Positions 4,915 to 62,416 of a stretch of DNA of 64,000 nt are shown piece after piece; position 1 is the stretch's first letter, and every line of letters starts with the position of its first letter. The DNA comes from Bacilli bacterium (GTDB lineage: Bacteria; Bacillota_I; Bacilli_A; ML615J-28; CAG-313). The notes below the pieces were generated by a model. That model was not told the DNA's origin and ran no database searches. It was given only the letters and a program-made list of their open reading frames with translations. The stretch is from NCBI GenBank assembly GCA_900770645.1, contig CAAGKY010000102.1, positions 1,053-65,052 of the forward strand, written 5' to 3'. The position numbers and the translations under genes were made by a program.

Positions 4915-4929
4915 TAAGGAGACGTAATA

Positions 4930-13469: not shown

Positions 13470-13545
13470 CTATAGGATTAAAAAATTTGCTAAATTATAC
13501 GAACAGCTTGTTTAAAAGCGTATTTTATAAAATAAGGAGTAACTT

Positions 13546-16500
13546 ATGCTAAAAATGATTGTACAACATCGCAGAGGTACGACTGCTGAATGAAAATTAT
13601 CTACAGTAATTCCACTAGAAGGTGAACTTTTAATCGAAGAAACAGTTTCTGATGGAATTAAACTTAAAATTGGTGATGGTAAATCAGGATTCTTAGGCTT
13701 ACCTTATATCACAGATTTACTATCTGATAAAATTACTGCCGCTGAAAAAGAATTGAAAAATGTACAAAGCACTGTTACTGATAATGAAGTTATTAGAAAA
13801 TTAAGAAAAGATTTATCTGACCTTGACACCGAAATTAATCTCTTAAATAGAGAACTAGTAAAAGTTCAAAAAAACGTTGGTGACAAGACTATTAACCCAG
13901 AAACAAACGAAATAACTTATTCTGGACTTCATGCACAATTACAGACAATTAGAAACAGTGTTAATATGTTATCAAATAGAATTAGTGGTTTTACATCTCT
14001 TGAAGAAGGTAGTGTGACAGGAGATGCTGAATTACTAGATATTAGACATGGATTTAACGGAATCGACTATTCGTCTGCTGGAGACGCTGTTAGAGCTATT
14101 GGAGACGAATTACAAGCTTTTAAAGATGCTCTTCCTAGTTTTATTCCTGATAATGCTGTTGATGGATTATCTTATGAGAATAATAAGTTATATCTAACTT
14201 CTCAAGGTATTCAAGTAGGTGACGCAGTAACAATTACAGGAGGTGGCGGCGGTGGCAGCACATCTAGTACAATTATCACTTTAAAGAATAATGAGGGAAC
14301 AACTTCTAATATGTCTGTTTCAAAAGGAACTAAAGTAGAAATTAGTTTTAATTTTAGTTCTATTGAAGAAGGCGTTCCTACAGGAGACGGCGTATATAAT
14401 TTAGAAGTAAACAGTAACCCAGTTGAAACAAATGTTCAACTTTCACAAGGTAATAAGACAATCGATTTAACTAAATATTTAAAAGCTGGAATGAATAGAG
14501 TAAAACTTACTTGTTTCGATTATACTGGTTCTTATAAAAGCTTAGCTTATACGATTAATTTAATAGAGTTATCTATTGATTCATCTTTTGGCCCAAATAT
14601 AAATGATATTACTATATTTGAAGCTGACAATGCGGATGAAAATTTTGTTAGCGTAAATTATAATTATACTACTTATGGACAAGTTACAAAAATTGCTCAT
14701 TTCATATTAGATGATCAAGAAATTACTAATGCAGAAGGAAAACCTCTAATTCAATCACTAGGGGCTGGTGAAAAATCTTCTTCTATTAAGTTTAAGATTT
14801 ACGGACATGGTTGCCATAAATTTCAAGTTTATCTTACAGCCACAGTGAATAATAAAACTATTGAGAGTAATAAATTAACTTATAATATTTTATGTAATTT
14901 ACCAGATCCTGAAGCTACTAGACATCCAGCGATGATCGATTCAGTTTTCGAGATTACTAAAGCGACTCAAGGAGATTTGTTAGAAATACCATACAGAGTA
15001 TATGACCCAAATACTGGTCAAGTAACTGTAAATCTATTAGTTGGATCTGGAACAAAAGATAATTATGTAATAGATGAAAAATTATCTAAAGAAGAATTTG
15101 TCGGTAGAACAAAGCAAAAATGACCGATAAAAAATTATCCTATTGGAAATACTGTATTTATTATTAAATGTGCTTATCAAGTATATAACGAAGAAGGTAT
15201 ATTAACAACATATTATGCAGAAAAAATTCATGAAGTATTTGTAGAAGCACTAGATATTCCAGTAGAAGCTGAAACAGCTAATTTACAACTTTGATTAAGT
15301 GCAAACGGAAGATCTAATGCTGAGCTTAATCCTGCAGTATGAGAATATACTCAAACTGTTGAAACTGCTAATGGAATAGAAGAATTAGATACTATTAGAA
15401 CAACTTTTTCTAACTTTAACTGAGTTAATAACGGATGACTTTCTGACGTTAATGGTGATACTTGTTTAAGATTAAATGGTGCCGCTAAGGCCGTAATTGA
15501 TATTAAACCATTTGAAAAGAACTTTGTTAATACAGGTAAAACTTTTGAATTTGATTTTGTAATTAGAGACGTAAATAATCGTGATAGTACTGTAATTAAC
15601 TGTTTTAGTGGAAATAGAGGCTTTAAAGCTACTGCTGACACTTTTACATTCAGAAGTGAATCTGTTCAAATGTCTTGTAACTATAAAGACGTAACATATT
15701 TAACAAAATTAAATGATAAAACTCAAAAAGAAGAGACTATAGAGCAACTTGAACGAACAAGAATTTCTATTACTATTGCTCCATCTAGTTTAATCGCAGA
15801 TAATGCACCAGATTTGAACACTTATTTTATCTCGATGTATATTAATGGTATTTTATCTAATTGTCAAAAATATGGTGGAATAGATGAAGGATTTACTCAA
15901 AGTAATCCAGTAAAAATTTCTTTAGGTTCAGAAGACTGTGGATTAGATTTATATAGTATACGTATATATGATAGTGCACTTTCTCATAAAGGAATTGTTG
16001 ATAATTATATTGCGGATAGTGCTAATGGTCCAGATAAAATAGATTTATATAGAGAAAATAATATTTATTACGCTGATTCTGAGTTATCAGATCAAATTTC
16101 ATATGAAAGTTTAAAAGGAAAAATTCCAATTGTCACTTTTACTGGTAGAATGCCAACATATAAAGGTGATAAAAAGACAAATTCTGTGCTAATGAAGTTC
16201 GAACATCCAGAACATCCAGAGCTAAATTTTGAAGAAGTATTAAAAGAAATAGACGTACAAGGTACTTCTTCTCAATTCTATGTTCGTAAAAACTGAAAAA
16301 CAAAACATTACGACAAGCATGCTCATATGAAAGGTGAGATTCCAACTAAGGTTTTCTGTTTAAAAGTTGACTACGCTGAAGCCACTGGTACTCATAATAC
16401 TCAAGCTGCAAATTTTGTAGAAACATTATATAATCGTTCTGAAGCTCTTTTACCACCACAAGAAAAAGATTCTAGAGTTCGTTCTACGATTACTGGTTTT

Positions 16501-19500
16501 CCATGCGTTATTTTTGAAAAAGAGACTGCTTCTTCTCGACCAGTTTTCTCAGCAAAAGCAAACTTTAACTTTGACAAAGGTTCTGAAGAGGCATTTGGTT
16601 TTACAGAAGATTATGATGTAGAATCTTGAGAATTTTGTAATAACACTTCAGGTGCATGTAATTTCTTAGAAAAAATTAATACCGAAGCTTGAGCAGCTGT
16701 TTATAGATTATCAGGTGCTACTGAGAATACGTCTATTACGATTACGGCTAATTCTCCTGAAGAGGCTGAAATTATTGCTCGTGAATTATTAGCTACGAAG
16801 TCTTCTGAAGATGCTCAATGAGTTAATGCTAAATATATTGGTGTACATCCTTATTGATTAACTGACTTTGAAGCTAGATATGCTCAAAATACTATGAAGT
16901 ATAGCGATGGTTCTACATTTAAATTTGATAAAGATGAAATGTTCTCTATTGATAGATTTAAAGAGATGCATGATTGAGTTTGTGATACCGCAACAGTTAT
17001 GTACGCTAAGCCAGAAGCTAAGGATGGCTACTGATGAGTAGGTAATAAAAATACTGGATTTGAAATTCTTACAGACGATGATGGAAATATAATTCAACCA
17101 GAGATTATTGAAGACGAAGCAACAAAATCTAAGAATTGATATATTAATGGAGTAGATTCAAAAATATCTAGTCTTGATATCGTTCCAATAAATGTATTCC
17201 CTTTACCTAAACCTGTGACTATTGGAACAGTTGAATATAGAGAAGATAACGTAGATTATCGTAGAGCAAAGTTCGTCAAAGAATTTACAAACTATTTTGA
17301 TGAACACTATGCAGCGGTTTATTATGTATATACTTTTGTCGCATTAATGACCGACCAAAGAGCCAAAAATATGTTCTTAACTTATTGAGGTGAGACTGGT
17401 AAATGATATCCATATTTCTATGATAATGATACTTCTTTTGGTATCAATAATGAAGGTGCTCTTGTTTTCGATTATTATCATGAAGATACTGATACATTAG
17501 ATGGTGCACTAGTTTACAATGGTCAAAATAGTGCATTATGAACAAACTTTAGAGAAAATTTCGAAGACCTAGTTTCTTCAACATATCAAAACTTAAGAAA
17601 TAATGGTAAATTAGATTACGAAAAATTTGTAGAGCAATTTATTAATTGTGGAGCTAAGAAGTGGTCTGCATCTATTTATAATGCTGACGCAGAATATAAA
17701 TATGTGTCTATGGCACGACCTGACAATTTAGGAAACTTTGATGCTGCAAACTTATATCAAGTTAAAGGTTCTGCTGAACAACATTTTAAATACTTTGTTG
17801 CAAATAGATTAAAGTATTGTGATAGTAAGTGAAACTGTGGTGACTACCCGGACGACAAGATTTTCTTACGTATTTATACTCCATCTACAGGTGATAATGC
17901 TATTTTAAATGAGCCAAAACAGATTGACGGATATTGATGGATTGATGGTGTAAACACTGGATACTTAGTTAATACAGATAGCAGTGATCAAATCATAATT
18001 CCAGAAATAAGTGAAAATAATACTTGGATTCTAAATAAAGGTTTAGAAGATCAAGAAATTGATACAGAGATAGAGGTTAGATACGGAAAAGTTGAATTAG
18101 CAGTGGCACCAAATGCTAATATTAGTTTAAAAACATTTTCAGATATGTATGCAGGTGTTAAATACAAAGCAAATGGTACGTTATTAAGAAAGAGAGTTAA
18201 GAAAAATGTAATGTTAACTGGAAAAGACGCATTTATTCCTCCAAAATCAGCTAACGGTTTATCTGAAGTATTTAATGATACTGAAACTGCGATTTATGGT
18301 GCGAGTGAAATTTCTTCTCTTGGAGACCTATCTGGACTTTATTGTGGTGTTATTGATGTTTCAAAAGCTACGAAGTTAACTGAACTAAAAATTGGTAACA
18401 GTACTACTGGTTATTTTAATGATAACTTTAGAGATATTCAATTAGGTAATAATAGATTATTGAAAAAAATTGATTTAACAAATTGTCGAGGTTTAGGAAT
18501 CGCTGGAAAAAGCCCTCAAAAATCTTTAAATGTATCAGGTTGTCCAAACATCGAAGAAATTTTGGTTAAGGGTACAAGTTTAGAATCAATTAACTTGCCA
18601 GCTTCTGGATATATTACAAAACTTGAATTACCAAATACTTTGACAGGTCTAAATATTAGAAATCAAATGTACTTAACAAATAGTGGTATTTTATTGGACG
18701 ATTATTCTAAACTTAAAAAATTACGTATTGAAAACTGTAAAAATATAGATACTTTAGCTCTTCTTAGAAATTGTATAGATAGTTCGAATAACTTTACAGT
18801 TGAACGAATCAAATTAACTGGAATAGATTGAACATTTGATGATCCTGAATTCTTATTATCACTTATGAGTATTAAAGGTATGGACGCAAATGGTTTAGAT
18901 ACTGATCATGTATATCTTGGCGGACATGTTCACATAAAAGAACTTACTGGAGCACAATATACTCGAATATTTGATTACTATAATACTTATCACACTAATG
19001 AATCACTTTTAAAAATTACTTTTGATCGTATGACATCTTATGTATCGTTCTATACTAACGTAAAAGATGGAAATGGAAACTATATTCCATTTACATTCTC
19101 AGATGGAACACCTTGAATCCAAGAAGTTACAAATACACTAAACGATAAAGGAGAAATTGTTCGTAATACGACTGATCCAACAAAAGTTCCTTATTTATAT
19201 GATGGAAAAGAGGAAAAATTACAAACTCCAACTCAAGAAAGCACTATTGAGTTTTCTTATGCATTTAATGGTTGAACACGTACGCCTAATGCTCCTGCTC
19301 AAGTAGATGCATTATTAGACGTTACAGGTGATCGATCTGTTTATAACGCATATGTAAAAACTATTAATAAGTATCCAGTTCAATTTTATACTTATGGTTG
19401 AGATGGTCCAGAGTTATTAAATACGGTTATGACTAATTATGGTGAAATTGCAGAGTATTCTGGTGATACAGCGTTACTGATTAAAGGTAATACTAGTGTA

Positions 19501-20871
19501 CCAGAACGATATGAATTTGTAGGATGATCGCCTGAACCATTAGTTAAGCCTACTACTTTTGATGAAGTTATTAAGACTTACGCTCAGTTTAACTTAGTCG
19601 ATCGAGATGAAGACGGAGATATTTCTGATGAGTGACATATTCCATTACTTGGTGATATTAATTACTCTATAGATGACACTTCAAAGAAGATGAATATTAC
19701 TGCTTACTATAATACTAGTGAACCATTAGTTTATATACCAGAATCTTATTTTATTGGAGACGAGGAATATTCTGTTTACGAGGTTGGTGGTTTTAACGCT
19801 ACAAATGTAGAACATGTTAAATTAGCTGAAGGAATAGAATCTATTTATGGACACCCAATAAATGGAGCATTTGCTGGTGCACAAAATTTAGTTGAAGTAG
19901 ATTTACCAGAAAGTTTGACTACGATTAAAGACAAAGCTTTTTCACAAACTCCTAGATTGACAGAATTATACATTCCAAAAAATGTACAAAGGATCGAAAG
20001 ATCAATTTTAGGTGAAGGTGGACATGTGAAAAATATTACCGTAGATAAAGATAATAAGATCTACGAAGCTATAGATGGATGTTTATTGGGACCTTATTCT
20101 TTATATTCTGCAAATGGAAAAGAGAATGAAAAGATAGTTCTTGCATGTAACACTAATGATGCTTTACCAGACTCTGTACAAGATAAAAATATTGTATGTA
20201 TAGGTACAGATGCATGTAGACAAAATCATTGTACCGAAATAACTATACCCAATACAGTTAAAATATTAGAAAACTTTGCTTTCTTTAGTTGTAAGAATCT
20301 TAAAAAAGTTAACTTATCTAGTAATGTTGAAGAATTTGGATCTGGAGCATTTGGATATTGTGAAAACTTAGAGTCTATCACTTTACCAGAGACTTTAGTT
20401 CAATTATCAAACCATGCGCTAGTTGGATCAAACCTTGAAGAAATTATTGTGCCAGCAAATGTAAAAAATATCTCAATCGAAGCCTTTAGTAAATGTAAAA
20501 ATCTTAAAAAGATTACTTTTATGGGTAAACCTGATAAGATTTCTTGGTCTATACTCGCAGATTCTGGTCATGAGGATGGCTTAGAGATCTATGTAGCTTG
20601 AAATAAAGAAGATAATCGCACGATTGGTGCTGGAGATACTGCCAAACTAGGTGACCCATATACTGCTATACCTTGTGCTTGAGGTGCAGGAGCGCCTATG
20701 CCACAAACACTTGATACAGAATCTGATTATGCCTATAACCGAGAAATTAAGCGTACTCGTAATGTAAAAATTATTTATAAAAATGGTGAAGAGCAATTAT
20801 TATTAGCAGGCGAAAAAGCTTGACCTGATTGATCAGCTATTTCAACATTTATAGATCGAGGAGACAATTAG
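13546..20871 (+). CDS. giant multidomain virion protein (about 2441 aa): fibre N-terminal motif, CotH kinase-like domain, LRR and BspA-type LRR
   Basis: I checked frame continuity across every junction; there is no in-frame TAA or TAG from 13546 to the TAG at 20869-20871. More than 20 in-frame TGAs. CotH-like DQRAKNMFLTYWGETGKW(tga)YPYFYDNDTSFG. LRR region 18100-18830. BspA-like LRR IPxxVxxIxxxAFxxCxxLxxI at 19690-20600. Confidence 0.7.
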
Positions 20872-25160: not shown

Positions 25161-27137
25161 ATGGCAAATAAAGTAATTGATTCCATGACATATGGAAGCG
25201 ATACGTATACGATTTCGACGCCTTATGGAACCTGCTCGACTGCTGCAGCAACAGCAGCTAAAACTGTAACATGTGCTAACTTCGTAGCATTAGAGACTGG
25301 AGCAAAAGTTACAGTACTTTTTACTTATGCTAACTCAGTTGCAAATCCTACTTTAAACGTAAATAGTACAGGTGCGAAATATATTTTATATAGAAATACT
25401 AAATTAGATACTTCAGCAGAATATTGAAAAGCAAATGATACACTTACTTTTGTATATGATTCTACTTGAAGTTCTAATACTGGTGCTTGAAGATTAGAAG
25501 GTCATTTAGATACTGATACAAATACTAACACAACTTATTCAGTAACTACTGGTGACAATAATGGTCAAATTAAAGTTGCACCTAGCGGTGGAACTGCTTA
25601 TAATGTGAATGTTAAAGGGTTAGGATCATCTGCTTTTGTACCTACTTATAAGGCAGCTGAATGCACATCTTACTCTTCAGATGATGGTAACTGTACACCT
25701 GCAGCTGTAAATAAAGCGATTACTCAAGGAATTTTTCCAGCTAACTCTACTGCTTATGGTACAATTAAAGTATCTTCTGTTAATTCTTCTGCAGTTACAG
25801 TAAATAATGAATCTTCAACTGCTGGAAGATATTATCCAATAGAATTAAATAGTGATGGAAAAGCTATTGTAAATGTTCCTTGGACAGATACTGACAATGA
25901 TACAACATACTCAGCTGGAACTGGACTAACTAAAACTTCAACTACTTTTAAAGCAAACTTAAGAAGTGAGACAAAATTAACTAATGATTCTGCTGCAGCT
26001 ACTGAAGTTGCTAATAGAGTTTATCCAGTAGCGGTAGATAAATCAGGGTACTTATCAGTAAACGTTCCTTGGGTAGATACTAATACTCACGACGGTAATG
26101 ATAATCAAAAAGTTAGTGCTGGAACTACAACTTTTGGTATAAATGATACTGTTAAGTTTGTTGCTGGTAGCAATGTTACGATTACGCCTGATGCAACAAA
26201 TAAAACAATTACAATTAGTTCAACTGATACTAATACGGACACTAACACATCTCATGATCACACTGCGGGCACAGGATTAATTATTAGTGGTAGTGGTGGA
26301 ACATCTGGTACGACAACATATTCAGCAAATCTTAACAGTACAACATCTTTAGGAACTATTGGAACCACATCTAAGCTTTATGCTGTTGGTGTAGATGCTA
26401 ATGGTAAATTATGTGTAAACGTTCCTTGGACAGATACTAATACTGATACTAATACTCATTACACAACAGGTTTATATGTTGGAGCTAGTAATGCAAAATC
26501 TAATGCAGCTACTTCTAATGGTGGAACATACTTAAAACTGTATGACGACAGTACAAAACGTGCTGAATTTAAAATTACTGGGTCTGGTGCGACTACAGTA
26601 ACTTCTGATTCAAGTGGTAATATTACTATTAGCTCAACAGATACAAACACAGATACTGGAGCTACTAGTGTAGAAGTTACTGGGTCAGGTAATGCAGTAA
26701 CTGCTGCTTCTTATGATGCGTCTTCTAGAAAAATAACTCTAACAAAAGGCACTACTTTTTTAACTTCACATCAAACAATGTATTATAGACCTATTCGAGT
26801 GAATGGTACTCAAATTTTAGCTAATACTTCAAGTACAGCTTTAAACTTAAAAGCTGGAACAAACGTGTCTATTAGTAATTCTAGTGGAACAGTGACAATT
26901 AGTGCAACTGATACTAATACATGGCGTGGTATCCAAGATAACTTGACTAGTACATCTACTACTGAGTCATTAAGTGCAAATCAAGGTAAAGTATTAAAAG
27001 GATTAATCGACGGAAAATCAGACTCTGGTCATACTCACACTTCAGTTAATGGTTATACTATTACTGTTTTATCTCAATCTTCTTGAAATAGTCTTTCTTC
27101 TAAATCGTCTTCGACAATATATTTTATAACTGCATAG
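25161..27137 (+). CDS. paralogous fibre protein with VNVPWTDTNT repeats
   Basis: Same N-terminus (GTCSTAAATAAKTVTCANFVALETGA). Repeats Y(P/A)V(A/G)VD..G.L.VNVPW(T/V)DT. One frame through five TGAs to TAG at 27135. Confidence 0.65.
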
Positions 27138-27147
27138 GTGAATAAAT

Positions 27148-28389
27148 ATGGCAGTAAAAAAAATATATAAAGGATCGAGTGTAATAAATAACCTATCTGT
27201 TGGAAGCACAGAAGTTAAAAAAGTAGTTGTTATAAATAGTAGTGGTACTTCTAATACTGTTTATGAAAAAGATTTTGATACATACATTACTGTCGTAACT
27301 CCTGCTGGGACAGTTATAAACAAACAAATGGTGACAGCTGGCACAAGTCTTACAACGTCTACTCTTCTTGGTAAAGTACTATCTTATAAATCTTCTGAAT
27401 ATACATCTAATAATCTATACTATTATGATGTACCATGCGATATAACTGTTACACTCTACGATGAAAATAATCAAGTAATTAGGAATATTTTTACTACCGC
27501 TGACGATTTCTATGATGATTTAGCTTCTTATAATTGTGCTACTTCTGGAACATATTATCATATAAAAGCTGAAGTAGAATCTACTTCAAAAGTCGCAGTT
27601 ATGCTTAATATTGATGTTTATTATTATATGTCTTTTGCGCTTTCTGGACTAGTTTTTACTAAAAGTTATCATAAAGGCTCGACATATTCTCAAATTATTA
27701 ATGATTCAGGAAGACCTTCGAGTGAAGTTGTCACTACTGGTGGCTGAAAATATTCTTATTATTATCATCATTTAAGATATGACGACGATACGTCATCTAC
27801 TATTAGCTCTTCAGATCGTATTTTGTCTAGTAGAGCTGTTGAGTATTATTATGCGTATGATCTAGAACAAGTTGACACTAGCGCAGATGGCGCACCGACT
27901 TATTCTGGAGTATTCTTAAAGGCAAGTGATGGAACGTGGCAAACAGTTTTCTCTTGTAGCGGAAACTCTTACGGCGCTATTTATGGAACAGTTAATGCGT
28001 CTGGATCAGACGGTGCTTATAGTGGATATACTTATTCTCTTTTGCTGAAATTCTGAATTGTAACTCCGCCTGGGACAAGTGAAGGTAAAGGATGAAAAGT
28101 TACAGTATATAGTAATAGACAATATATAACTAGTGATGTAACTGCTTTTGATACTTCAAGCGGCTTTATTTTTCCTGGAGTAAACTCAAGAGGTACAGGA
28201 TTTAATAATGTTCGTTTAGGAACATACCAACAAGGTTCTCACAATCTTGGAACAGGGTGATTAAAATTAAAAGCTGCTGGAACAGATATTGTTGGAAGTC
28301 TTGGTGTTGAAAATCAAGAACTTACTAATAACTGTACTATTTATTGAGATGCTAACAACAGTAATTCATCTTCTGGAGGAGGAGACTAA
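27148..28389 (+). CDS. structural protein, unknown function
   Basis: One frame through TGAs at 27745, 28054 and beyond. Stop TAA overlaps the next start (TAATG). Confidence 0.55.
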
Positions 28390-30196: not shown

Positions 30197-30712
30197 GTGA
30201 TGATTACTATGTCTAATTATATTTTTCTAGACATAGACGGCGTAATGAATAATCGTCGAGACTGGATGTCTAAAGTAGACAACAAGACAGAACAATTTCA
30301 TAGCCATAGAATGTTTTGTGACGAAGCTTGGCAACTATTGAGTGATGTTTGTCAAAAAACAAATGCAAAAATCATTTTATCATCATCTTGGCGCTTAGGA
30401 CTTACTTATGATGAAAATGATAAGGTTATAGCTAGAGACCATACTTGTCATTTATCTACAAAACTAATTGAATATTTTGATAAATATGATATTAAATTAG
30501 TTGGCATTACTGTTAATAATTGGTCTGAACGTGGACAACAGATAATGAAATATGTTATGGATCATCTTGAAATAGAAGATGATTTTGTAGTAATAGATGA
30601 TGAATCTTTTGATATCAGAGAATATGTTTCTGAAGATCAGTTTATAAAAACAGAATTTGAAACTGGATTGCTTCCAGAACATTGTGAAAAAATCATTAAA
30701 TATTTTAATTAG
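30197..30712 (+). CDS. HAD-superfamily phosphatase-like protein
   Basis: Motif I FLDIDGVMN; true start possibly ATG at 30215. Confidence 0.6.
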   Translation: MMITMSNYIFLDIDGVMNNRRDWMSKVDNKTEQFHSHRMFCDEAWQLLSDVCQKTNAKIILSSSWRLGLTYDENDKVIARDHTCHLSTKLIEYFDKYDIKLVGITVNNWSERGQQIMKYVMDHLEIEDDFVVIDDESFDIREYVSEDQFIKTEFETGLLPEHCEKIIKYFN

Positions 30713-34135: not shown

Positions 34136-35794
34136 ATGTCAAAAATGTTAGACTCAGTTAAAGAAATTCGTTCAGATGTTAAATCAAAACAAGTTACAAA
34201 TTTTATGGGCGGAAATTCTTATGAATTAAACGCTATTGATACTTTAAAGATGATTACAGCTTCATCTATTTTTGGAGAACCTTCATATTACCGTAATGGT
34301 GAATTTGATGATGCAAAAATTACTGATGCATATTATGATGTTAATTCTTTATTTAAAGAATTTAGTGTATTAGATGATTCTAAATTCTCTGGTAAAAAAA
34401 CTTCTGAAATTATGGAACAAGTTATTGATGAAGCATTAACAGAAGATTTTGGGGCTGTTTTAGATTGGGCAGTTGAGCTACGTAAAAACTATTTAATGAG
34501 ATTAAACCCTCAAGTTATTATGGTACGTGCAGCTATGCATCCAAATAGAGTTAAATTTAATGAAGAAAATCCAGGTAAATTTAAAGAAACAGAAAAATTA
34601 GTTATGTCTCGTGCTGATGAACCTGCTTCTCAATTAACTTATTATTTATATAAAAATAAGAATAAAAATAATTTACCAAATATTTTAAAACGTTCTTGGG
34701 CTGAAAAATTAGGTAGTTTAAATGCATATCAAGTTTCAAAATATAAAAATACAGGTTTAGGAATGATCGACGTAGTTCGTATTTCACATGCAAAATCTAA
34801 AGTTTTAGATGAACTTATGAGAACAGGAACTGTTGTTGTAGCTGAAGAAGATAAAACTTGGGAAAATCTTAAATCAGCTGGAAAAACATGGAAAGAAATT
34901 CTTGAAACTATTAAATTAGGCCATATGGCTCTTTTAAGAAATCTTCGTAATATTTTTACAGAAATTGATGATAGAGCTATTTGTATTAAAGTTCTTGAAG
35001 ATTTAAAAGCTGGTGTTTTATCTGGTAAACAATTTCCATTTAGATACTATTTAGCATATAAAGCAGTTGAAGAGTCAAGTATGAACTTTAAACCACTAGT
35101 TTTAGATGCATTAGAAGAATGTATTGATATTTCATTAGATAACATGCCAAAACTTTCTGGTAAAACTATGACATTATCTGATAACTCTGGTTCTGCTTGG
35201 GGAACAATTCCAACAGAATATGGATCAGTTAAAGTTGCAGAGATTGATAACTTATCTGCTGTTATTACAGCAATGCTTTCTGATGAAGGTTATGTTGGTG
35301 TATTTGGAGATAAATTAGAAATTATTCCAATTAAAAAACGTGATGGTGTTTTATCTCAGATGAAACTTGTTACTGAAAAAGGTAGTAGAGTAGGTAGAGG
35401 AACAGAAAATGGTATTTGGTTATTCTGGGACAAAGCTATTAGAGAAAAAGAACATTGGGATAATGTATTTATTTATTCAGATATGCAAGCAGGTCATGGT
35501 GGATTATACGGTATTGATGCACACTGGTATAACGAATATAGATGTCGTGGTAGTTATATTGATGTTATGAAGCTAGTTTCTAAATATCGTTCAACAGTAT
35601 CTGGCATAGTAAATGTATTCTCAGTTCAAACTGCTGGATATACAAATGTAGTAATTCCAGAATATGCATATAGATCTAATGTAATGTATGGCTGGACAGG
35701 TAAAGAAGTTGTATTCGCTGACACAATGATTAATTTTTGGAATGAAAAAGATTTAGAGAGATTAATCAAAATTAGAAAAAATAATCAAAATTAA
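34136..35794 (+). CDS. Ro60/TROVE-like protein with C-terminal vWA domain (Rsr-like)
   Basis: 552 aa. Large alpha N-terminal region followed by a vWA MIDAS motif LSDNSGSAWG (DxSxS) at about residue 345. Flanked on both sides by ORF-free structured RNA and a tRNA island. No TGA. Confidence 0.45.
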   Translation: MSKMLDSVKEIRSDVKSKQVTNFMGGNSYELNAIDTLKMITASSIFGEPSYYRNGEFDDAKITDAYYDVNSLFKEFSVLDDSKFSGKKTSEIMEQVIDEALTEDFGAVLDWAVELRKNYLMRLNPQVIMVRAAMHPNRVKFNEENPGKFKETEKLVMSRADEPASQLTYYLYKNKNKNNLPNILKRSWAEKLGSLNAYQVSKYKNTGLGMIDVVRISHAKSKVLDELMRTGTVVVAEEDKTWENLKSAGKTWKEILETIKLGHMALLRNLRNIFTEIDDRAICIKVLEDLKAGVLSGKQFPFRYYLAYKAVEESSMNFKPLVLDALEECIDISLDNMPKLSGKTMTLSDNSGSAWGTIPTEYGSVKVAEIDNLSAVITAMLSDEGYVGVFGDKLEIIPIKKRDGVLSQMKLVTEKGSRVGRGTENGIWLFWDKAIREKEHWDNVFIYSDMQAGHGGLYGIDAHWYNEYRCRGSYIDVMKLVSKYRSTVSGIVNVFSVQTAGYTNVVIPEYAYRSNVMYGWTGKEVVFADTMINFWNEKDLERLIKIRKNNQN

Positions 35795-36556: not shown

Positions 36557-36633
36557 TATTCAAATTTAATTTTCATCGCCAAAATATGTGCTAAATTAAA
36601 TGTAAAAATATTTAAAATATGGAGATTTAATTT

Positions 36634-37386
36634 ATGTATAAATGTGAGTGTGGAAAAGAATTTGAAAAACCTAATAGCTTTAATGCACATAAATCTAACT
36701 GTAGAGAACATTACATAGCTAAATATGGTTCTGATAAAAAGTGGCTTGAAATTAAAGAACGACGTAGTAAAAATAGTTTAAATACAAGTAAGGTTAATTT
36801 CAAACAGAAACAAGTTGAAGAATTGAACATCTGACTTTCTGAACAACATACTTGTGAAAGATGTCATAAAATAATGACTAAATGATACGGTTCTGGTAGA
36901 TTTTGTTCTCAAAGTTGTGCTAATAGCAAAGATAATTCAGGTATGAAATATACTTGTAGCTGTCAGTATTGTGAGAAACAATTTGTAAAAGATACAGCTA
37001 AGGCTCGTCATGAAAAATATTGTGAGTTAAATACAAACAGACCACCTAAAGCGGGACAACATAAATATAGATTAGATAAAAGTGTAGATTTTTATAGAAT
37101 TGGTAGTATGCATCAGATATTAGTAAATACTATCGAAGATGTTGAAAATTATTTATCTGCACATCTTACTTGTGAAATTTGTGGCAAAACGGTTGAAGAA
37201 ACGGTCAAATGAAAGTCTAAACATGCACCTAAGCGTCTATGTGTAGATCATGATCATGCAACAATGCAGTTTAGAGGTGTTTTGTGTTCTGTTTGTAATC
37301 GTCAACTCGGATGATATGAAGCAAACAGAGAAGCTATTAATAAATATTTAGAAAAAGATTTTCCTCTAGAAGATAAATCAAAATAA
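36634..37386 (+). CDS. HNH endonuclease with N-terminal C2H2-like zinc finger (homing-endonuclease-like), several in-frame TGAs
   Basis: One frame through TGAs at 36832, 36883, 37210 and 37312 to TAA at 37384. HNH motif LCVDHDHATMQFRGVLCSVCNRQLGW. GSGRFCSQSCANSK is shared with the 50751 gene. Confidence 0.65.
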
Positions 37387-38170: not shown

Positions 38171-38227
38171 GCCAAAAATAAAAATAATTTAAAATTTATA
38201 AAAATATTAAAAATTATACTGTTTATA

Positions 38228-38245
38228 TTGTATAATATTATGTAA
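38228..38245 (+). promoter_or_regulatory. extended -10 promoter TTGTATAATATTATGTAA
   Basis: Consensus copy upstream of the intron-containing tRNA. Confidence 0.5.
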
Positions 38246-38332
38246 CTAAGTGAGTATTTATATTTTATTAAAAAATGATTCCCTATGATTACTTATGTCA
38301 TTTCTTTCATAAGTGCTCACCTAGTTTTATAT

Positions 38333-38625
38333 AGGGGCTTCGTACAACGGCAGTACATCGGTCTTTTTGAAAAAACAGTGGCCAACCACTTATGGAGCAC
38401 CTAGTTGGAAACATCTAGTGTGAATGCTGGCTAATTCGGCGAAGGTTGGAGAACGCCGAGCTAAGTGGAAAGTAATTTCCTAAATGTGTAGAGACTATAC
38501 ACCAGCTACCTAAACAGAAATGCACGGTAAAGACATAGTCCACTAAGATTAACGTATTCTTATGTCAAGAACTAACTTCTTAGGCAAAACCGCGAATGTG
38601 GGTTCGATTCCTACAGCCCTTACCA
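38333..38625 (+). tRNA. tRNA gene interrupted by a group I intron of about 220 nt; anticodon unresolved (Lys or Leu candidates)
   Basis: 5' exon: acceptor AGGGGCT, D-arm GTAC-AACGGCA-GTAC, anticodon stem TCGGT. 3' exon: T-arm GTGGG-TTCGATT-CCTAC, acceptor AGCCCTT plus ACCA. Interior carries group I P7 elements R-like GTAGAGACTATAC and S-like AAGACATAGTCC. Confidence 0.55.
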
Positions 38626-38738
38626 TTTAAAAAATTCAAGCACGATTAATTTCGTGCTTTTCTTTTATTTTGCACTAAAATTAGCTTTATTTTTATCGTA
38701 TAATATTATATATAATGAATATAATGGAGGTTATTAAT

Positions 38739-40048: not shown

Positions 40049-40082
40049 ATTCTAAAGTCACTAAATCTTCAGAAAAAATTAT

Positions 40083-40098
40083 TGTATAATATTATGGT
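40083..40098 (+). promoter_or_regulatory. extended -10 promoter (TTGTATAATATTATGG)
   Basis: Consensus copy directly upstream of an ORF-free, GC-elevated segment. Confidence 0.5.
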
Positions 40099-40099
40099 A

Positions 40100-40510
40100 T
40101 ATATCTCCTGGCAGTGCTGGGTAAGTGGCCAATTGGATGAAACTCGCTGGTGCGACCCCAATTACGGCAAGGTATATAGGAGAAGGAAAACTCCTCAAAC
40201 CAGCCTTGACTTCGTGTTAAGGTCTTGGACAACTCGAGTGTCGAGTGGGTGTTAACAGCCCTTATAAGGAATGATTGTGGCAGGGGCCACTCCTTCGTGG
40301 ACATTCCCTATATAAAGTGTTAATTGCCCCCACGTAGGGCTCGACTAAGTATGGATAGTTACAAATCATTGCCCGCTGCTTGGTCAATTTGTGTATATAT
40401 CGAGAGGCTTGATGTATACCAACCTAGCACTAACACTATTACTTGGGTAGGGTCTATGCGACCTTCGCCTTCAAAATTATTAAATGCGCGCGGTGTTAGT
40501 GCTTCTTTGT
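40100..40510 (+). ncRNA. candidate structured ncRNA of about 400 nt (unknown family)
   Basis: Promoter-driven. GC-elevated. No credible ORF. 5' motif TCTCCTGGCAGTGCTGGGTAAG recurs at 48723. Many short GC stems. Confidence 0.4.
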
Positions 40511-40637
40511 AATAAGCATAGATAAAAAACAATATTATAGTAATGGTGAATGAAATAGTATTGGAAACCTGTAAGACTAAGTTATATTAAACTTGATAGT
40601 TTCTTTGTCTATGCTTACTAGAAAGAGAGACTAGTGT

Positions 40638-43133: not shown

Positions 43134-44123
43134 ATGAATAAAAAAAGAATGGTAAGCGGGATCAAGCCTACGGGAAAAATTTCAATCGGAAATTATTTAG
43201 GCGCAATTAAACAATTTATTAACTATCAAGATGAATATGATTTATATGTATTTATTGCTGATTTACATGCTCTAACTTTACCAATTGATCCGGAAGAATT
43301 AAAACAAAATATTGAAGATTTAGTTGCTATTTATTTAGCTTGTGGATTAGACCCAGAAAAATGTAAAATTTTTAAACAATCTCAAATAATTGGTCATACT
43401 GATTTAAGTTGGATTTTAACATGTAATTCTAATGTAGGTGATTTTACTAAAATGCCTCAATATAAAAATTATATTGAAAAAAATAGTACTAATGGTGTTC
43501 CAGCTGGAATGTTAATGTATCCAGCATTAATGGCAGCAGATATTTTATTATATGATGCTGATTACGTTCCTGTTGGAATTGATCAAATGCCTCATGTTGA
43601 TTTATGTAGAGATATGGCAGAAAAGTTTAATAAACGCTTTCCAGATACTTTTAAATTGCCTTCTGGTGTTTTAAATAGAACAACTAGTAAAATCATGAGT
43701 TTATCAAATCCAACGCGAAAAATGAGTAAATCTGAGTCTGATAAAGGAACAATTTATTTATTAGATGACATTGAAGTTTCTAAGAAAAAAATTATGAAAG
43801 CTTTAACAGATTCTGAAAATAAATTTTATTATGATCCTTTCTTAAAACCAGGCCTATCTAACTTAATTAATATTTATTCAGCATTATCTGGACAAGCTGT
43901 TGAAGAAGTTGTTGAACAATACAGAGATTCTGAAAATTATGGCGTTTTTAAAAGAGCTTTATGTGAACTGTTAGAAAAAGAATTACTTCCAATTCAAGAA
44001 AGAGTGAAAGAAATTAAAGAAAGTAAATCTTATGTTCAAGTATTACAAGATGGTAATTGGGCAGCTCACGATCTAGCTTTTTCAAAGATGAGAGAAGTTT
44101 ATAAAAAATTAGGTTTAAAGTAA
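43134..44123 (+). CDS. trpS: tryptophanyl-tRNA synthetase
   Basis: Near full-length collinear similarity to bacterial TrpRS. SGIKPTGKISIGNYLGA (HIGH-region equivalent), ADLHALT, MYPALMAADILLY, KMSKS. 329 aa. No TGA; all Trp codons are TGG. Confidence 0.95.
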   Translation: MNKKRMVSGIKPTGKISIGNYLGAIKQFINYQDEYDLYVFIADLHALTLPIDPEELKQNIEDLVAIYLACGLDPEKCKIFKQSQIIGHTDLSWILTCNSNVGDFTKMPQYKNYIEKNSTNGVPAGMLMYPALMAADILLYDADYVPVGIDQMPHVDLCRDMAEKFNKRFPDTFKLPSGVLNRTTSKIMSLSNPTRKMSKSESDKGTIYLLDDIEVSKKKIMKALTDSENKFYYDPFLKPGLSNLINIYSALSGQAVEEVVEQYRDSENYGVFKRALCELLEKELLPIQERVKEIKESKSYVQVLQDGNWAAHDLAFSKMREVYKKLGLK

Positions 44124-44510: not shown

Positions 44511-44555
44511 AAATAAATATTGTATTATATTATATATAACACAGGAGGATTTATT

Positions 44556-45086
44556 ATGTTTAATATTAATTTCAATGCAAAAGATACAACTTGGACTCCA
44601 GCAATGGAAGAACATGCTAGAAAAGTAATTGAAAAAATCTTTACTCGCATTGCAATACCTACAGAAGCAAGTTTTTTTGTTAAAACATCGATTATCGATA
44701 AGAAAACAAAAATGATTAAAGTTGAATTAAGTGGTGCTGGATTTAGAGCTCAAAGTGTAAATAAAGATTTTTATGCAGCAATGACCGCTGTAACTAATAA
44801 ATTTAAATCTTTAATATTAAAACAAAATAAAAAATATGTAACAAAGAAAAAACATATTACTTTTGATGATGATAGTTTCTTAGAAAACGATTCTATCGAT
44901 GTTAATAATTTAATTACTAAAGAAAAAGTATTTATCATTGATGAGTGCTCTTTAGAAAAAGCTATAACAAAATTTGAGCAAACAGACTACTCATTCTATA
45001 TTTTTAAAGAGTTAGATTCAGATGATGAAATGGCTGTATTATATAGACGTGCTGATGATACTCTTGGTATTATTAGATGTCGCTAG
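44556..45086 (+). CDS. hpf: ribosome hibernation promoting factor (HPF/RaiA, long form)
   Basis: AGGAGG RBS. N-terminus MFNINFNAKDTTWTPAMEEHARKVIEKI and FYAAMTAVTNKFKSLILKQNKK are collinear with bacterial HPF/YfiA. Confidence 0.65.
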   Translation: MFNINFNAKDTTWTPAMEEHARKVIEKIFTRIAIPTEASFFVKTSIIDKKTKMIKVELSGAGFRAQSVNKDFYAAMTAVTNKFKSLILKQNKKYVTKKKHITFDDDSFLENDSIDVNNLITKEKVFIIDECSLEKAITKFEQTDYSFYIFKELDSDDEMAVLYRRADDTLGIIRCR

Positions 45087-47077: not shown

Positions 47078-49250
47078 TCGGATCGTACTCTAGAAATCTT
47101 CGGAACTAGGGTTAGCAATTATGCTTAAAATAATCGCGCCACAGGTTGTGACAGGGGTGGTTGTACGAAGAAGCAGGTGTACGTAAAATAACCAAGGATT
47201 ATTAAGATGAGTCAGTGCGGACCACCTGAGGGTTGAAGAAGGCATGGAATAACCATTGGTCTTAATAATGAATTACAAAAACCAGTAATACCACAATGGC
47301 CGTAAACCGTATACGACTCTGGTTGAAGTAGGAGGCACATCGCTGAAATGCGAAGTTAACAAGTAAAAACGGTTTGAGTCAGGGTGATATCTGACAAGTA
47401 CCAGGTGGTAATGGTCATATTGTATAGGTTTTTAATAAGTTTATACTATACAAAATTATGGAGTATTATAAGTTTTTATAGCACCCCTATAAAAAGAGGC
47501 CCTTATAGTACAGAATTATAAAATAACTTAATAGTCGTTGAAAGTGGTATCCATCGGCTGGGATTGAATAGAGTTATAAGATACCCTCTATTCCGGATAC
47601 GTTTAAGGGTAAGACGATAACGAGGCCTATTATTTGGCTAATAATAGGGAAAACCCTTTTGGATCATACTTTAGTTTCTTCGGAGCTAAGGTTTTAAAAA
47701 ATTATTGGGCTGGGCGAAAGCTCTTGGTCCACCAACGACGGGGAATTGCCTCGTCTGGTGTTCAGCGAAAGCTGATAAGTTTATTAAGGGCGAAAGGTGT
47801 TGCGACACCAAGTAGCGATATACACGAGGTTGCGGAGATGCATGTGCGACTCATACAACACCGGCAGGGGGCTAGTTTAAGAGTACAATACCGCTCAGTG
47901 TATAGCTAGGCAACGTAAGTTGTAACAGATAATTCGAGAGTGGTAGAATTTTTGGGTTATCTTAAACGTATTTCTGCGGCAGCAATTGAGCTGTTCTAAG
48001 GAATATAAGAGTATTCAATATGTGTCATGGAGAATACTGCATTTAGGTGTTAGGAACGGACTGTAAGTAAGAAGACAGTATCAGAGATTTAACGACTGAT
48101 TTAGACTTCTTCTCCCTGACTAATTAAATGGAGTGTGATGAACAGCCTAAAATTGTTAAACGGTTCGGGTATACATCGAGAGTATACATTGCTAATCTGT
48201 GGATTAGTTATCTTATTAGTTTCCTGTTCATTTGTGAATTGAGGTAAAGCAATAAGCAAAAGCTAATAATTTTGATCACTTACCGTTGGTGAGATGTGAC
48301 CTCCACTTGGTTGATAACTAGAGTGGCATTAAACTGCCGAATGACTATTCCTTGGGCCAAGGATACGGAAACCTCAGAAGCGGAAATCGCTAACCGTGAT
48401 TGTCATTGCACGTCGGAAACCCTTTTCCGTAAAATTGGGGACTTAATAGTAACTAGGTTAAAAAACTACTATTGATGTCGCGTATCGTCAGCCGATCTAG
48501 TAGGCTTGTGTTAGTACTAACAGGGACGCTCTCTGTAATCCTACAAGCGATAGTAGGTAATTTTATTATAGTGGCTTTTGTATTAGACATTAGTTATTTA
48601 TAATAAAATTTATAACAAGTGTGGTTTCTACTATAAGTGAGGCCAACTAGCAGTAAGTCTAATTTTATATTTAGGATGTCGACAGATATAGATTAGCAAC
48701 TAGTATATATTTCTATTATTATATAATTCCTGGCAGCGCTAGGTTTAGCAAAGTTGAACGTAAAAAGATGGGTGTCTCAGTTCTAAGAAGTAAGTTATAT
48801 AAAATAGAAATTTGTAGACTTCTCCATCAGGCCTCTGCCTTTTGGTATGCACACTTGATGGCGATCTGCCAAATAGATCCATACACGCCGCCATTGTTGT
48901 TTTTGGGTTAATGTACTATTGAGCATGCAGGTCTTTGGACTTCAGTAGAGTTAACTCTGTGGTAATAAGTCTGTTTGTCAGACTCGGCGTACCATGTATG
49001 GCCATTTAATGCTCTTCAGGCAGTCTGTAAGAGTAGTATAGTAGTAAATTTTCTTCCCGCACCTCGGCAAGACAGCGAGACAGTTTGTGCATGTGCCCCA
49101 GGGAAGCAGAGCTTGATATCTCTATCGTCTCAAAAGTTATCCGTAACATTGAGCGCAGGTAAGCTAATTTAGTCTTGACCTGGACCGTGATAAAAACTTC
49201 CTTTACGTGAATGAGGACCTGACTGAGGATATGTTAGAAGTCAGAGCGCT
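47078..49250 (+). ncRNA. about 2.1-kb ORF-free, GC-elevated segment between tRNA genes: candidate giant structured ncRNA(s) or intron
   Basis: No ORF over 91 aa in any frame even allowing TGA. The two track ORFs (47634..47909, 48975..49172) lack an RBS and end at TAG. GC clearly above the genome background. Multiple GNRA-type hairpins (ACGGAAACCT, AGCGGAAATCGCT, CGGAAACCC). Internal promoter-like TATATAAT at about 48700 followed by TCCTGGCAGCGCTAGG. Confidence 0.45.
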
Positions 49251-50648: not shown

Positions 50649-50750
50649 ATATTTATTTTTTAATTAGACTTAATGTAATTGATTCGATTTAGAAACTATC
50701 CACCAAATATTTGCTAAATTAAATGTATTTAGTTAATTTAAGGAGTTTTT

Positions 50751-51731
50751 ATGAAAGTAATTAAGACATATATTTGCGAATGTAACAGAGAATTTAGTAA
50801 CCCACAAAGCTTTAACGGCCATAAGAGTCACTGCAAAATTCATATGATAGCTACAAATAAATATGATAAGTTTTTACAAGATGATAACATACGTCATGAA
50901 AAACAGAGAGCTACTATACAATATAAAAAAATAAATCAATTAAAAATAGCTGAACAAAATAGTGAAAACAATACAAAAATCTGAAAAGCTAAAAAATATA
51001 CTTGCGAAAAGTGTGGAAAAGTGATGACTGAAAAATTTGGCTCAGGTAGATTTTGTTCAAGAGCTTGTGCTAACAGTCGAAATCATTCAGAAGAAACAAA
51101 GAATAAAATTAAATTATCAAATACTGGAAAAACATTTATTTCTTCAAAAGTTGTTGATAGAGAAATTGCTATTGAACTATATAATCAATCTCCAAAATAT
51201 TGTATTGATTGCAATACTTCATTACCCTTTGAGCGTCGTAAAAAAGACAGATGTTTAGACTGTGCAGATATTCATAAAAGACAGTTGTTATCAATAAACT
51301 CAAAAAAATGAGTTGAAATCTATGGAGGTAACATAAACAAATTTGGCACAAGAGGCCGAGCTAAATACGGTTGATATAAAGGTTTTCATTGTGATAGCTC
51401 TTTTGAATTAGCTTATGTTGTGTATTGTCTAGAACATGGTATAAATATTCAGAGAAATAAACAAGGTTTTGAATATGAATATAATGATAAAAAGCATTTA
51501 TACTATCCAGATTTTATTGTAGATGATACATATATCGAAATAAAAAATTATTGAAGCTCTGAAGTGCAAGCTAAGATAAATTATTTTCCTAAGAATTTAA
51601 ACTATAAAATTTTATATAAAAAAGATCTGACAAGTATATTATCTTTTGTTATTGAGAAGTATGGGTGTGACTACACGGCAGCTCTCTATGATAGAACCCT
51701 ACCAAGTTATTTAGATAAAAATAAGAAGTAA
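50751..51731 (+). CDS. homing-endonuclease-like protein: C2H2-like zinc finger, NUMOD3 motif, PD-(D/E)xK-like C-terminal domain; several in-frame TGAs
   Basis: One frame through TGAs at 50982, 51309, 51369 and 51552 to TAA at 51729. CECNREF...HKSHC. GSGRFCSRACANSRNHSEETKNKIKLSNTGK (NUMOD3). YYPDFIVDDTYIEIK. Confidence 0.65.
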
Positions 51732-61492: not shown

Positions 61493-62416
61493 ATTATTTT
61501 CAACAAATTCTTTTAATTGAAATACATAATCGACATTATAACGAGCTCTTGTTGTTTTTCTAATTTTATCACCAATAATCTTACTAGCATTACCTATGCC
61601 GCCGTATCTGTCATTTTGTATAGTTTTATTATACTGTATAAATTCATCAGTTTGAAAATATGTTTTAGAGCCATATTTTTCTAAATTAGTGTTTGCTACT
61701 TTTTCTCTAACTATTTCTAATTTATTTACATTTGTAACACCGTATAGTTCTAAACAAGTATCTTTTCTTTTTTTATTTGCAAATTGTACGTCTTCTGCTC
61801 GAGAATGAATACTTATATTGTTTTCCTGCAGAAATCTTATAAGCTTTTCTTTTCTACATTCAAAATGTTCTGCAGTGTCCTGAGTGCTATGATTTGTATA
61901 ATAGTCTAATACTTCATTTAGATTAAAAATTAATTTGTAATTAATTTTACATTGGCCAGGTACTCAGCCACTTGGCTGAGTATTCTCTTCAAAATATTTA
62001 CAGTCAATACCATTATTATAAATTTTTTTCACATTAATACCTACCTTAATATTGTTTATAAATAATTTAGCATATTATTTTAAATTACGTATAATTTCTG
62101 GGCACAGTCTCGTAAAATTACATCGATATTTTACGCAATATATAATATTATACAATAAAAATTACTCATATATACGCGCGTGCGCATTTAATTATATAAA
62201 AATATAAACTAGATATTAATAATATACAAAAAATATTTTTTTAAATTGATGATTATAAAAAAATAAAAAATAAAACTGTATAATATTTTGTGAGGTATTT
62301 ATGTATGGAAGATAGTAAAATTAAAGAACAAGACTTAGATTATGAAGGTTGGAGAAAATATATTGAGCAACTATATGCATTCTATCGACAAATAGATGAA
62401 GATAGCGAGAAGGAGA

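Follow-up and report, generated by a model that had tools for sequence, protein, structure and literature searches.

What does a phage-like DNA encode where the two halves of a tRNA gene stand some 220 nt apart? The question is raised by positions 38333-38625 (+) of the 64,000-nt stretch analysed here (contig CAAGKY010000102.1, positions 1,053 to 65,052, assembly GCA_900770645.1), called the window throughout, which is phage-like and has 31% G+C. The original prediction, made from the letters of this DNA, had proposed a tRNA gene split by a group I intron and had left the anticodon open. A full-length Rfam match, a fold from P1 to P9, covariation and an intron-less allele now bear out that proposal. 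The locus very probably encodes a phage opal suppressor, tRNA-Trp(UCA), whose precursor carries a 219-nt group I intron of the tRNA-Leu(UAA) lineage between U34 and C35, a reading to which we assign a probability of about 0.9.

The split gene and the fold of its insert

When each helix was checked base by base, the acceptor halves, the D arm and the perfect T arm named in the original prediction were all found, and the distance between the halves was 219 nt. The acceptor stem joins AGGGGCU (38333-38339) to AGCCCUU (38615-38621) by seven pairs, one of them G.U, and is followed by A73 and CCA. The D arm GUAC-AACGGCA-GUAC occupies 38342-38356 and the T arm GUGGG-UUCGAUU-CCUAC 38598-38614. Beyond the anticodon stem, exon 2 holds a 4-nt variable loop, the T arm, the acceptor 3' strand, A73 and an encoded CCA. 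The joined exons make a 74-nt tRNA (ARAGORN) with a canonical cloverleaf, a 7-nt anticodon loop and all four arms verified, whose sole defects are a U27.C43 mismatch and two G.U pairs.

The gene goes unseen by standard tRNA tools because the ribozyme splits it. ARAGORN in its default mode reported nothing at the locus and 12 other tRNAs in the window. Rfam at gathering thresholds gave nothing there either, and found 10 tRNAs and a DUF3800-XI RNA elsewhere; the intron was also not listed by the whole-window Rfam scan at E < 0.01. ARAGORN in intron mode recovered the split tRNA with an intron of 219 nt. The DUF3800-XI RNA motif (RF02975) lies at 47706-47752 (+) and scores 53.6 bits against a cut-off of 37.8.

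Aligned with Infernal, as had been suggested, the Rfam group I model (RF00028, Intron_gpI) covered the locus end to end (model positions 1-253, window 38355-38560, E = 2e-10 in a search of 551 nt), but its score of 45.5 bits stayed under the cut-off of 50. The whole intron family is borderline for this model: two relatives pass the cut-off (L007 with 57.7 bits, L013 with 54.7) and a third, L165, reaches 49.9. According to the available part of Williams 2020 (10.1101/2020.01.27.920355), the Rfam group I model has 12 seed sequences, none of them bacterial.

The helices of the intron, listed in Table 1, were drawn manually with the Rfam alignment and the relatives as guides. They make up a complete group I secondary structure, with the P3-P8 and P4-P6 domains, the P3/P7 pseudoknot, a P1 guide with its U.G pair and an omega G; failure to fold a P3-P9 core had been named beforehand as an outcome that would speak against a group I intron. 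The two complementary strings first taken as R-like and S-like contain P7, which has six Watson-Crick pairs. In P1, exon bases C32-U33-U34 pair with G38397-A38396-G38395, which places a U34.G38395 wobble at the 5' splice site, and the guide GAG stands directly 5' of P2 in most family members with an unambiguous junction. On the intron side, UUUGA (38366-38370) faces UUAUG (38390-38394) with four pairs and one U.U mismatch, above a hairpin in L1 (GUGG-CCAA-CCAC, 38378-38389). The same UUAUG can also pair with CAAAA of exon 2, as a P10. P4 closes a 12-nt loop, AAGGUUGGAGAA, at the place where relatives have a P5 hairpin. At the other end, both P9 and P9.1 are kept in L019 despite sequence changes, and L165 has a single hairpin there. 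The omega G, G38584, directly precedes C38585, and this junction agrees with the intron-less allele.

Pairing was tested in a MAFFT alignment of 16 family members with the structure of the window copy as reference, the controls being 3' partners slid by one to three columns. In the 16 introns, standard pairs fill 97.1% of cells (slid controls, 30-40%), and both partners have changed in 23 of the 37 pairs (slid controls, 7-14). Values as high did not arise in any of 500 shuffles. Covariation is strong in P2, P4, P6a and P8, and P3 covaries in the Bacteroidales copies.

The tRNA-like ends around a long insert recall one-piece transfer-messenger RNA (tmRNA), and the locus might be such a molecule, or another tRNA-like structured RNA, rather than a split tRNA. 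The insert is a covarying group I fold, however, and a normal D arm and anticodon stem are present. The -m mode of ARAGORN found no tmRNA, and Rfam gave no tmRNA match even at E < 10. The plain tRNA found at the orthologous locus of related contigs (see below) refutes this alternative, to which we give almost no weight, in line with its rejection in the original prediction.

Within L1, CCAACC (38382-38387) is complementary to GGUUGG (38444-38449) of the loop standing in for P5. L165 has CUAA for the tetraloop CCAA and UUAG for UUGG, a single both-side change that suggests a loop-loop contact, which would tether P1 to the P4-P6 domain. Two other pairings were considered and dropped. An extended P1 (G29-G30-U31 with ACC at 38399-38401) was given up because the CAC(C) there is the conserved 5' strand of P2, and a competing structure suggested by the 9-mer CACCTAGTT, present in the leader and in P2, was dropped because this 9-mer is not conserved in L019. 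A single-sequence minimum free energy (MFE) fold of the whole region, which cannot represent a pseudoknotted core, gave a z-score of only -0.9.

Table 1. Positions in the window of the split tRNA gene, the helices of its intron, the flanking signals and genes tied to recoding (ORF, open reading frame)
Feature	Position	Strand	Description
tRNA exon 1	38333-38365	+	acceptor 5' strand, D arm, anticodon-stem 5' strand, C32, U33, U34 (anticodon base 1)
Group I intron	38366-38584	+	219 nt, without ORF; last base is the omega G at 38584
tRNA exon 2	38585-38625	+	C35, A36, A37, A38, anticodon-stem 3' strand, then the rest of the tRNA 3' half
P1 and loop	38363-38397	+	exon CUU 38363-38365 with internal guide GAG 38395-38397
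P2 hairpin	38398-38422	+	GAAA tetraloop; 8 of 9 pairs vary on both sides in the family
P3	38426-38430 with 38502-38506	+	GCUGG with CCAGC; both-side changes in 2 pairs, in Bacteroidales chromosomal copies L177 and L179
P4	38436-38459	+	UCGGCG / CGCCGA; 3 pairs with both-side changes
P6 and P6a	38460-38487	+	P6 GC / GU; P6a GGAAA-GUAA-UUUCC, 5 of 5 P6a pairs vary on both sides
P7	38493-38498 with 38535-38540	+	GACUAU with AUAGUC; pseudoknot with P3; presumed guanosine-binding helix
P8	38507-38529	+	UACC / GGUA, inner 2-bp stem, GAAA loop; 5 of 6 pairs vary on both sides
P9 and P9.1	38544-38562 and 38567-38581	+	hairpins, then A, G and terminal G38584
Promoter-like site	38207-38242	+	-35-like TTAAAA, 18-nt spacer, TATAAT; 10 of 12 matches in consensus scan
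5' leader of pre-tRNA	38243-38332	+	removal by RNase P presumed
Intrinsic-terminator-like hairpin	38638-38672	+	8 pairs, T-rich tail, 13 nt after CCA
Client gene example	4918-7455	+	845-codon collagen-repeat structural ORF; 7 in-frame TGA, 0 TGG
Client gene example	13543-20871	+	2442-codon CotH/LRR-type structural ORF; 30 in-frame TGA, 4 TGG
Tryptophan-tRNA ligase	43134-44123	+	329 aa, no in-frame TGA, 4.5 kb downstream of the split tRNA

Splice junction, anticodon and the recoded genes

Two candidate junctions, 38365|38585 and 38364|38584, put a U ahead of the 5' cut and end the intron in G. The first gives the loop CUUCAAA, with anticodon UCA and the intron between U34 and C35. The second, one base earlier, would give CUGCAAA, an ordinary tRNA-Cys(GCA) with no tie to recoding; this is what ARAGORN calls in intron mode (tRNA-Cys(gca) i(33,219)), without any group I rule, and the Infernal alignment of P1 also puts the conserved U at U33. 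The guide decides otherwise: GAG, in the register kept by most family members, sets the U.G wobble on U34, whereas U33 pairs with an A.

Related contigs, fetched with the tryptophan-tRNA ligase (TrpRS) of the phage as handle, bear directly on this choice. In L167, L168 and L169 the orthologous locus holds an uninterrupted tRNA that reads ACGGTCTTCAAAACCGA, with the loop CTTCAAA and a score of 64.8 bits against the Rfam tRNA model. Gene order in these contigs is that of the window (Band_7, TROVE, tRNA, CoaB, TrpRS, HPF), and the leader and terminator hairpin are common to them too. Six further contigs (L170, L172-L176) have uninterrupted tRNA(UCA) genes adjoining TrpRS, and in three of these (L170, L172 and L173) a separate tRNA-Cys(GCA) stands beside the tRNA(UCA). 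The 3' junction of a distant relative, L010 (...GTAAG|CAAAACC), is compatible with UCA only. A BLAST search of phage records with the spliced tRNA returned almost only annotated tRNA-Trp, and the result was the same when the anticodon of the query was set to GCA, so that the tRNA body resembles tRNA-Trp and not tRNA-Cys. Identity as tRNA-Cys requires U73, and the discriminator here is A73. A tRNA-Cys is therefore very unlikely. The junction is set at 38365|38585, and we read the anticodon as UCA, with the intron at 34/35, because the intron-less allele, the guide register, the 3' end of L010 and the Trp-type tRNA body all point to it.

A UCA anticodon calls for genes with in-frame TGA, and the window has them. 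ORFs > 100 aa add up to 15864 aa with TGA as a stop and to 22578 aa once TGA counts as sense, which also opens a reading frame of 2442 codons. In-frame TGA codons are concentrated in structural genes (two examples are given in Table 1), and 27130-28389 has six of them and one TGG. A BLASTP alignment of the 2442-aa product with 120 homologues placed Trp in 776 of 1398 cells across 25 TGA columns, far ahead of Tyr (144) and Phe (126), the next most frequent residues. No in-frame TGA was found in the gyrase subunits, TrpRS, CoaB or the TROVE gene, the last of which has 11 TGG. From these alignments we read TGA as Trp in structural and other late genes.

The TrpRS is a member of the NCBIfam trpS equivalog TIGR00233 (329.4 bits against a cut-off of 176.75, E = 2.5e-98) and also matches Pfam tRNA-synt_1b. 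Its closest homologues adjoin tRNA(UCA) in related contigs, a linkage seen across the clade. ARAGORN detected no other tRNA(UCA) and no tRNA-Trp in the 64-kb window. The identity of the split gene as a suppressor tRNA-Trp(UCA) is thus argued from the TGA codons of structural genes, the Trp at their aligned columns, the TGA-free replication and translation genes that were checked, and the nearby TrpRS.

The flanks suggest how the gene would be expressed. The promoter-like site has an extended -10, TGTATAAT, within a repeated phage motif, TATTGTATAATATTATG. From the motif to the start of the tRNA, the window and L019 differ at only two positions; over the full 148-nt flank their identity is 90.7%. 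The intron-less tRNA of L167-L169 is preceded by a recognisable form of the leader and followed by the same terminator-like hairpin. The repeated promoter-like motif, TATTGTATAATATTAT(G/A) with extended -10, occurs at 2221, 33813, 38230, 40084, 45483 and 54371 (+) and at 62142 (-), with a variant at 38698; it precedes TGA-free genes, a tRNA-Lys, the split tRNA and an RNA candidate at 40100-40520. We infer promoter function, with its use and timing, and processing of the leader. The arrangement suggests that the split tRNA would be transcribed by the host polymerase together with TGA-free genes, before TGA-containing genes need translation.

A pathway may be proposed from these elements. A sigma-70-type promoter with extended -10 would drive a short unit of leader, exon 1, intron, exon 2 and terminator. 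The intron would fold with exon C32-U33-U34 on the guide GAG, U34.G being the splice-site wobble. Free guanosine would then attack after U34, and the terminal G38584 would dock in P7; ligation of the exons would yield the 74-nt cloverleaf with loop CU-UCA-AA. RNase P and 3' trimming would complete the tRNA, which would be charged with tryptophan, most likely by the TrpRS of the phage, the presumed enzyme for this step, and in-frame UGA of structural and other late genes would be read as Trp. Without ribozyme activity, the split gene of this phage would form no functional suppressor.

Several neighbouring genes belong to the same context. A translation and RNA-repair module surrounds the tRNA genes (43134-44123, 44520-45086, 34136-35794 and 30197-30712) and comprises the phage TrpRS, an S30AE/HPF-like ribosome hibernation factor, a TROVE/Ro60-like protein and a 'Swiss Army Knife' RNA-repair HAD domain. 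The same set recurs in the related contigs L164-L176. Two paralogous zinc-finger ORFs (36631-37386 and 50742-51731, both +) have four in-frame TGA each, the first with an endonuclease VII (HNH-type) domain, and both look like free-standing homing-endonuclease-like genes. The first lies about 950 nt upstream of the split tRNA, and one may speculate that it acts in intron mobility. The paralogous zinc-finger ORFs echo a published note that the intron endonuclease of Agate phages is preferentially TGA-recoded. Right after the motif copy at 40080-40096, some 420 nt without an ORF (40100-40520, +) have an MFE z-score of -2.4 and a G+C content that by eye is above the 31% of the window; no Rfam match was found there at E < 1, and the segment may be an undescribed structured RNA.

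Relatives with and without the intron

Does the intron still splice, or has it decayed? Several observations weigh against the favoured reading. The Rfam score of the intron is lower than the curated gathering cut-off, and P5 is reduced to a loop. P7 is invariant in 16 of 16 aligned introns and so gains no support from covariation, which therefore speaks neither for nor against it. The anticodon stem contains the U27.C43 mismatch, and the discriminator base is A73, whereas G73 is usual in bacterial tRNA-Trp. Guanosine-dependent self-splicing is itself predicted, from sequence. The genome is in view for 64 kb only, and a second, uninterrupted suppressor may lie elsewhere in it. Finally, the intron probably confers no needed function, because sister phages lack it.

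The missing P5, the sub-threshold score, the stem mismatch and the 64-kb view would all be accommodated if the intron had decayed and no longer spliced, the tRNA gene were dead, and UGA were decoded by another suppressor in the genome or by the host. Comparison within the clade makes this improbable. The intron is carried by four members, namely the window, L019, L164 (in which the 3' half alone is visible, at the contig end) and L165, and is absent from nine (L167-170, L172-176); late genes have in-frame TGA in relatives that bear it (L019, L164, L165) and in those that are free of it. The window copy retains all core helices, the guide and the terminal G. Pairing-preserving changes among the three diverged copies (window, L019, L165) maintain P2, the hairpin in L1 and P9, for example CUAG/CUAG to CUCAG/CUGAG in P2 and GUGG/CCAC to GUAG/CUAC in L1, a sign of selection on the intron. 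The exons, too, keep their cloverleaf: compared with L019, exon 1 is 68% and exon 2 79% identical (88.6% for the intron), with compensatory changes in the acceptor and D stems. The stretch from promoter to tRNA is near-identical in L019 and the terminator hairpin is kept in L167-L169. Where contigs are long enough to judge, each tRNA(UCA) relative has a single such gene, adjoining TrpRS. This pattern fits a functional tRNA that hosts an optional mobile intron, not a decayed pseudogene.

Clade members differ widely in the tRNA body and have A1-U72, A73, CCA and the anticodon-arm core CGGUCUUCAAAACCG in common. The sister tRNA(UCA) genes (L019, L165, L167, L170, L172, L173 and the window) include acceptor stems that begin AGGGGCU, ACGGGAU, ACUCUGU, ACCCGAG and AGGAGCU. 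Divergence in L019 is much stronger in the exons than in the leader and intron that flank exon 1. Either fast compensatory evolution or swapping of tRNA bodies may account for such a variable tRNA(UCA).

Since the intron lacks an ORF and sister phages have this tRNA without it, it is most likely a tolerated mobile element and not a required part of the system.

Where did it come from? Searches with short core strings retrieved the wider family: a 19-mer across P7-P3 gave 14 IMG/VR loci, an 18-mer across P3-P4 gave 29, and a 20-mer across P4-P6 gave three contigs binned with rumen Bacteroidales metagenome-assembled genomes (MAGs). The retrieved loci are mostly tRNA-Leu(UAA) genes and some tRNA-Leu(CAA) genes, with the break 3' of position 34, and in some of them an HNH ORF lies within L1 or P6. 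On viral contigs of IMG/VR, the family occupies at least a dozen tRNA genes. Homology to the Leu(UAA) 34/35 introns is shown by these comparisons, and the IC3 label of that class is taken from the literature: in the available part of Williams 2020 (10.1101/2020.01.27.920355), these introns are IC3 in the group I intron database and form the class 'Leu.3Ug'. This distribution of host genes suggests a jump of the intron from tRNA-Leu(UAA) to tRNA-Trp(UCA), which share the guide target C32-U33-U34, and exchange of introns between host and phage tRNA genes.

The large IMG/VR contigs with tRNA-Leu(UAA) introns are L004-L007, L011, L012, L015, L016, L141, L151, L156, L159 and L161-L163, with two exceptions, L141 and L163, in which the host is tRNA-Leu(CAA), with a C before the splice site. 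In L015 and L159 tRNAs with a short variable arm and a UAA anticodon are split at the same site. The introns of L008 and L013, also from IMG/VR, are not in tRNA genes; their context is G+C-rich and looks protein-coding, and they are flanked by repeated GGCAACTACAACAAC. In L010 (8000-8330) a related intron splits a non-canonical RNA with a long variable arm and a UCA loop, whose joined exons ARAGORN rejects as a tRNA. L003 (169-263) has an uninterrupted long-arm tRNA(UCA), labelled SeC, which adjoins a ROOL RNA; ROOL RNA stands near tRNA arrays in several distant relatives and is not found in the window. The contigs binned with uncultured rumen Bacteroidales MAGs (L177-L179) have a close intron in tRNA-Leu(UAA), one with an HNH ORF, which gives a hint of the hosts that the phage clade may infect and of introns passing between host and phage.

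Searches of INPHARED by blastn and megablast turned up nothing related to the locus or to the 20 kb around it, except for a short tRNA-Met match, and two patterns of the window subfamily had no match in IMG/VR. The pattern GGTCTT N{40,70} GCTGGCTAA gave 120 chance matches and no true member in viral contigs. A search of IMG/VR for CoaB neighbours gave one locus, L018, without a tRNA. A metagenome scan returned one true relative, L019, and one chance match, L020. Judged by the two subfamily patterns, the phage clade of the window seems to be absent from IMG/VR.

Comparison with known systems and significance

Among known systems the nearest are the tRNA-Leu(UAA) 34/35 introns of bacteria and plastids (the classical cyanobacterial type, 'Leu.3Ug'), which are small, have no ORF and sit at the same site, after U34 of the CUU... 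loop. They share the core sequences, and P2 to P7 can be aligned with covariation. The present intron differs in that its host is a Trp-type tRNA(UCA), a stop-codon suppressor in a phage genome, and in having, where P5 would be, a loop that is complementary to the loop of P1. Surveys of group I introns in bacterial tRNAs list the Leu 34/35 class and many others (PMC13011429; available part of 10.1101/2020.01.27.920355), and the 2026 survey has no Trp or UCA case in its text (PMC13011429).

Recoded gut and rumen phages (10.1101/2021.08.26.457843; PMC7886860) share TGA = Trp in structural and other late genes, as against the TGA-free replication and translation genes checked, low G+C and a tRNA(UCA) with TrpRS, the enzyme being carried by some of the TGA-recoded clades; they also have homing-endonuclease-like genes with in-frame TGA, as here. 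Their suppressors, however, are uninterrupted and detectable with standard tools, whereas the one described here is split by a ribozyme. A TGA suppressor was detected in only 35% of code-4 phage genomes, and non-canonical tRNAs were suspected (Borges et al., 10.1101/2021.08.26.457843); a gap in suppressor detection was also reported by Yutin et al. (PMC7886860).

Group I introns in protein genes of phages (T4 td, nrdB and nrdD; SPO1, Twort; crAss-like and Jug phages) are optional mobile ribozymes of the same sort, whereas this intron and at least a dozen IMG/VR relatives sit in tRNA genes. A 2014 review stated that all phage introns then known were in protein-coding genes, despite the many phage tRNA genes (PMC3984707); the present case, if true, runs counter to that statement. 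The 'enigmatic' tRNA introns of Lak megaphages (PMC6784885) also belong to an alternatively coded phage with intron-plus and intron-minus variants, but the available part of that article gives neither an intron class nor a suppressor host, whereas here a group I intron lies in a suppressor. Theta ribozymes, which are hepatitis delta virus (HDV)-like, likewise couple a ribozyme to the maturation of phage suppressor tRNAs; they are self-cleavers adjacent to the tRNA, within 5 nt, and mostly concern TAG and Gln (PMC10879173), unlike the splicing ribozyme inside the anticodon loop of a TGA/Trp suppressor that is proposed here. In the searchable literature, outside which most subscription journals lie, no account was found of a group I intron inside the suppressor tRNA of a phage. 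Such an intron combines known kinds in a new variant and is not a new kind.

Could the intron be more than a passenger? A gate or timer of the code switch is conceivable, because no suppressor would form until the ribozyme has folded and spliced, and the split precursor might instead be shielded from host anticodon nucleases; we consider either role unlikely. If the intron were a gate, its splicing rate could follow GTP or Mg2+ levels, a phage factor, or the L1-L5 loop pairing, and it would set the onset of UGA = Trp and hence of the translation of structural and lysis genes. The natural intron-plus and intron-minus variants offer a ready comparison for an effect of the intron on the timing of late-gene translation.

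A practical warning is that suppressor tRNAs can escape standard annotation. Whether or not the intron is a passenger, part of the ~60-65% of recoded phage genomes without a detected suppressor could be explained by suppressors that an intron splits, and the present reading, if true, would provide a testable reason why surveys of recoded phages often find none. It would also mean that recoding and self-splicing meet in one gene and that a change of the code depends physically on ribozyme catalysis, which makes this phage clade a good natural system for asking whether ribozyme splicing gates a genetic-code switch.

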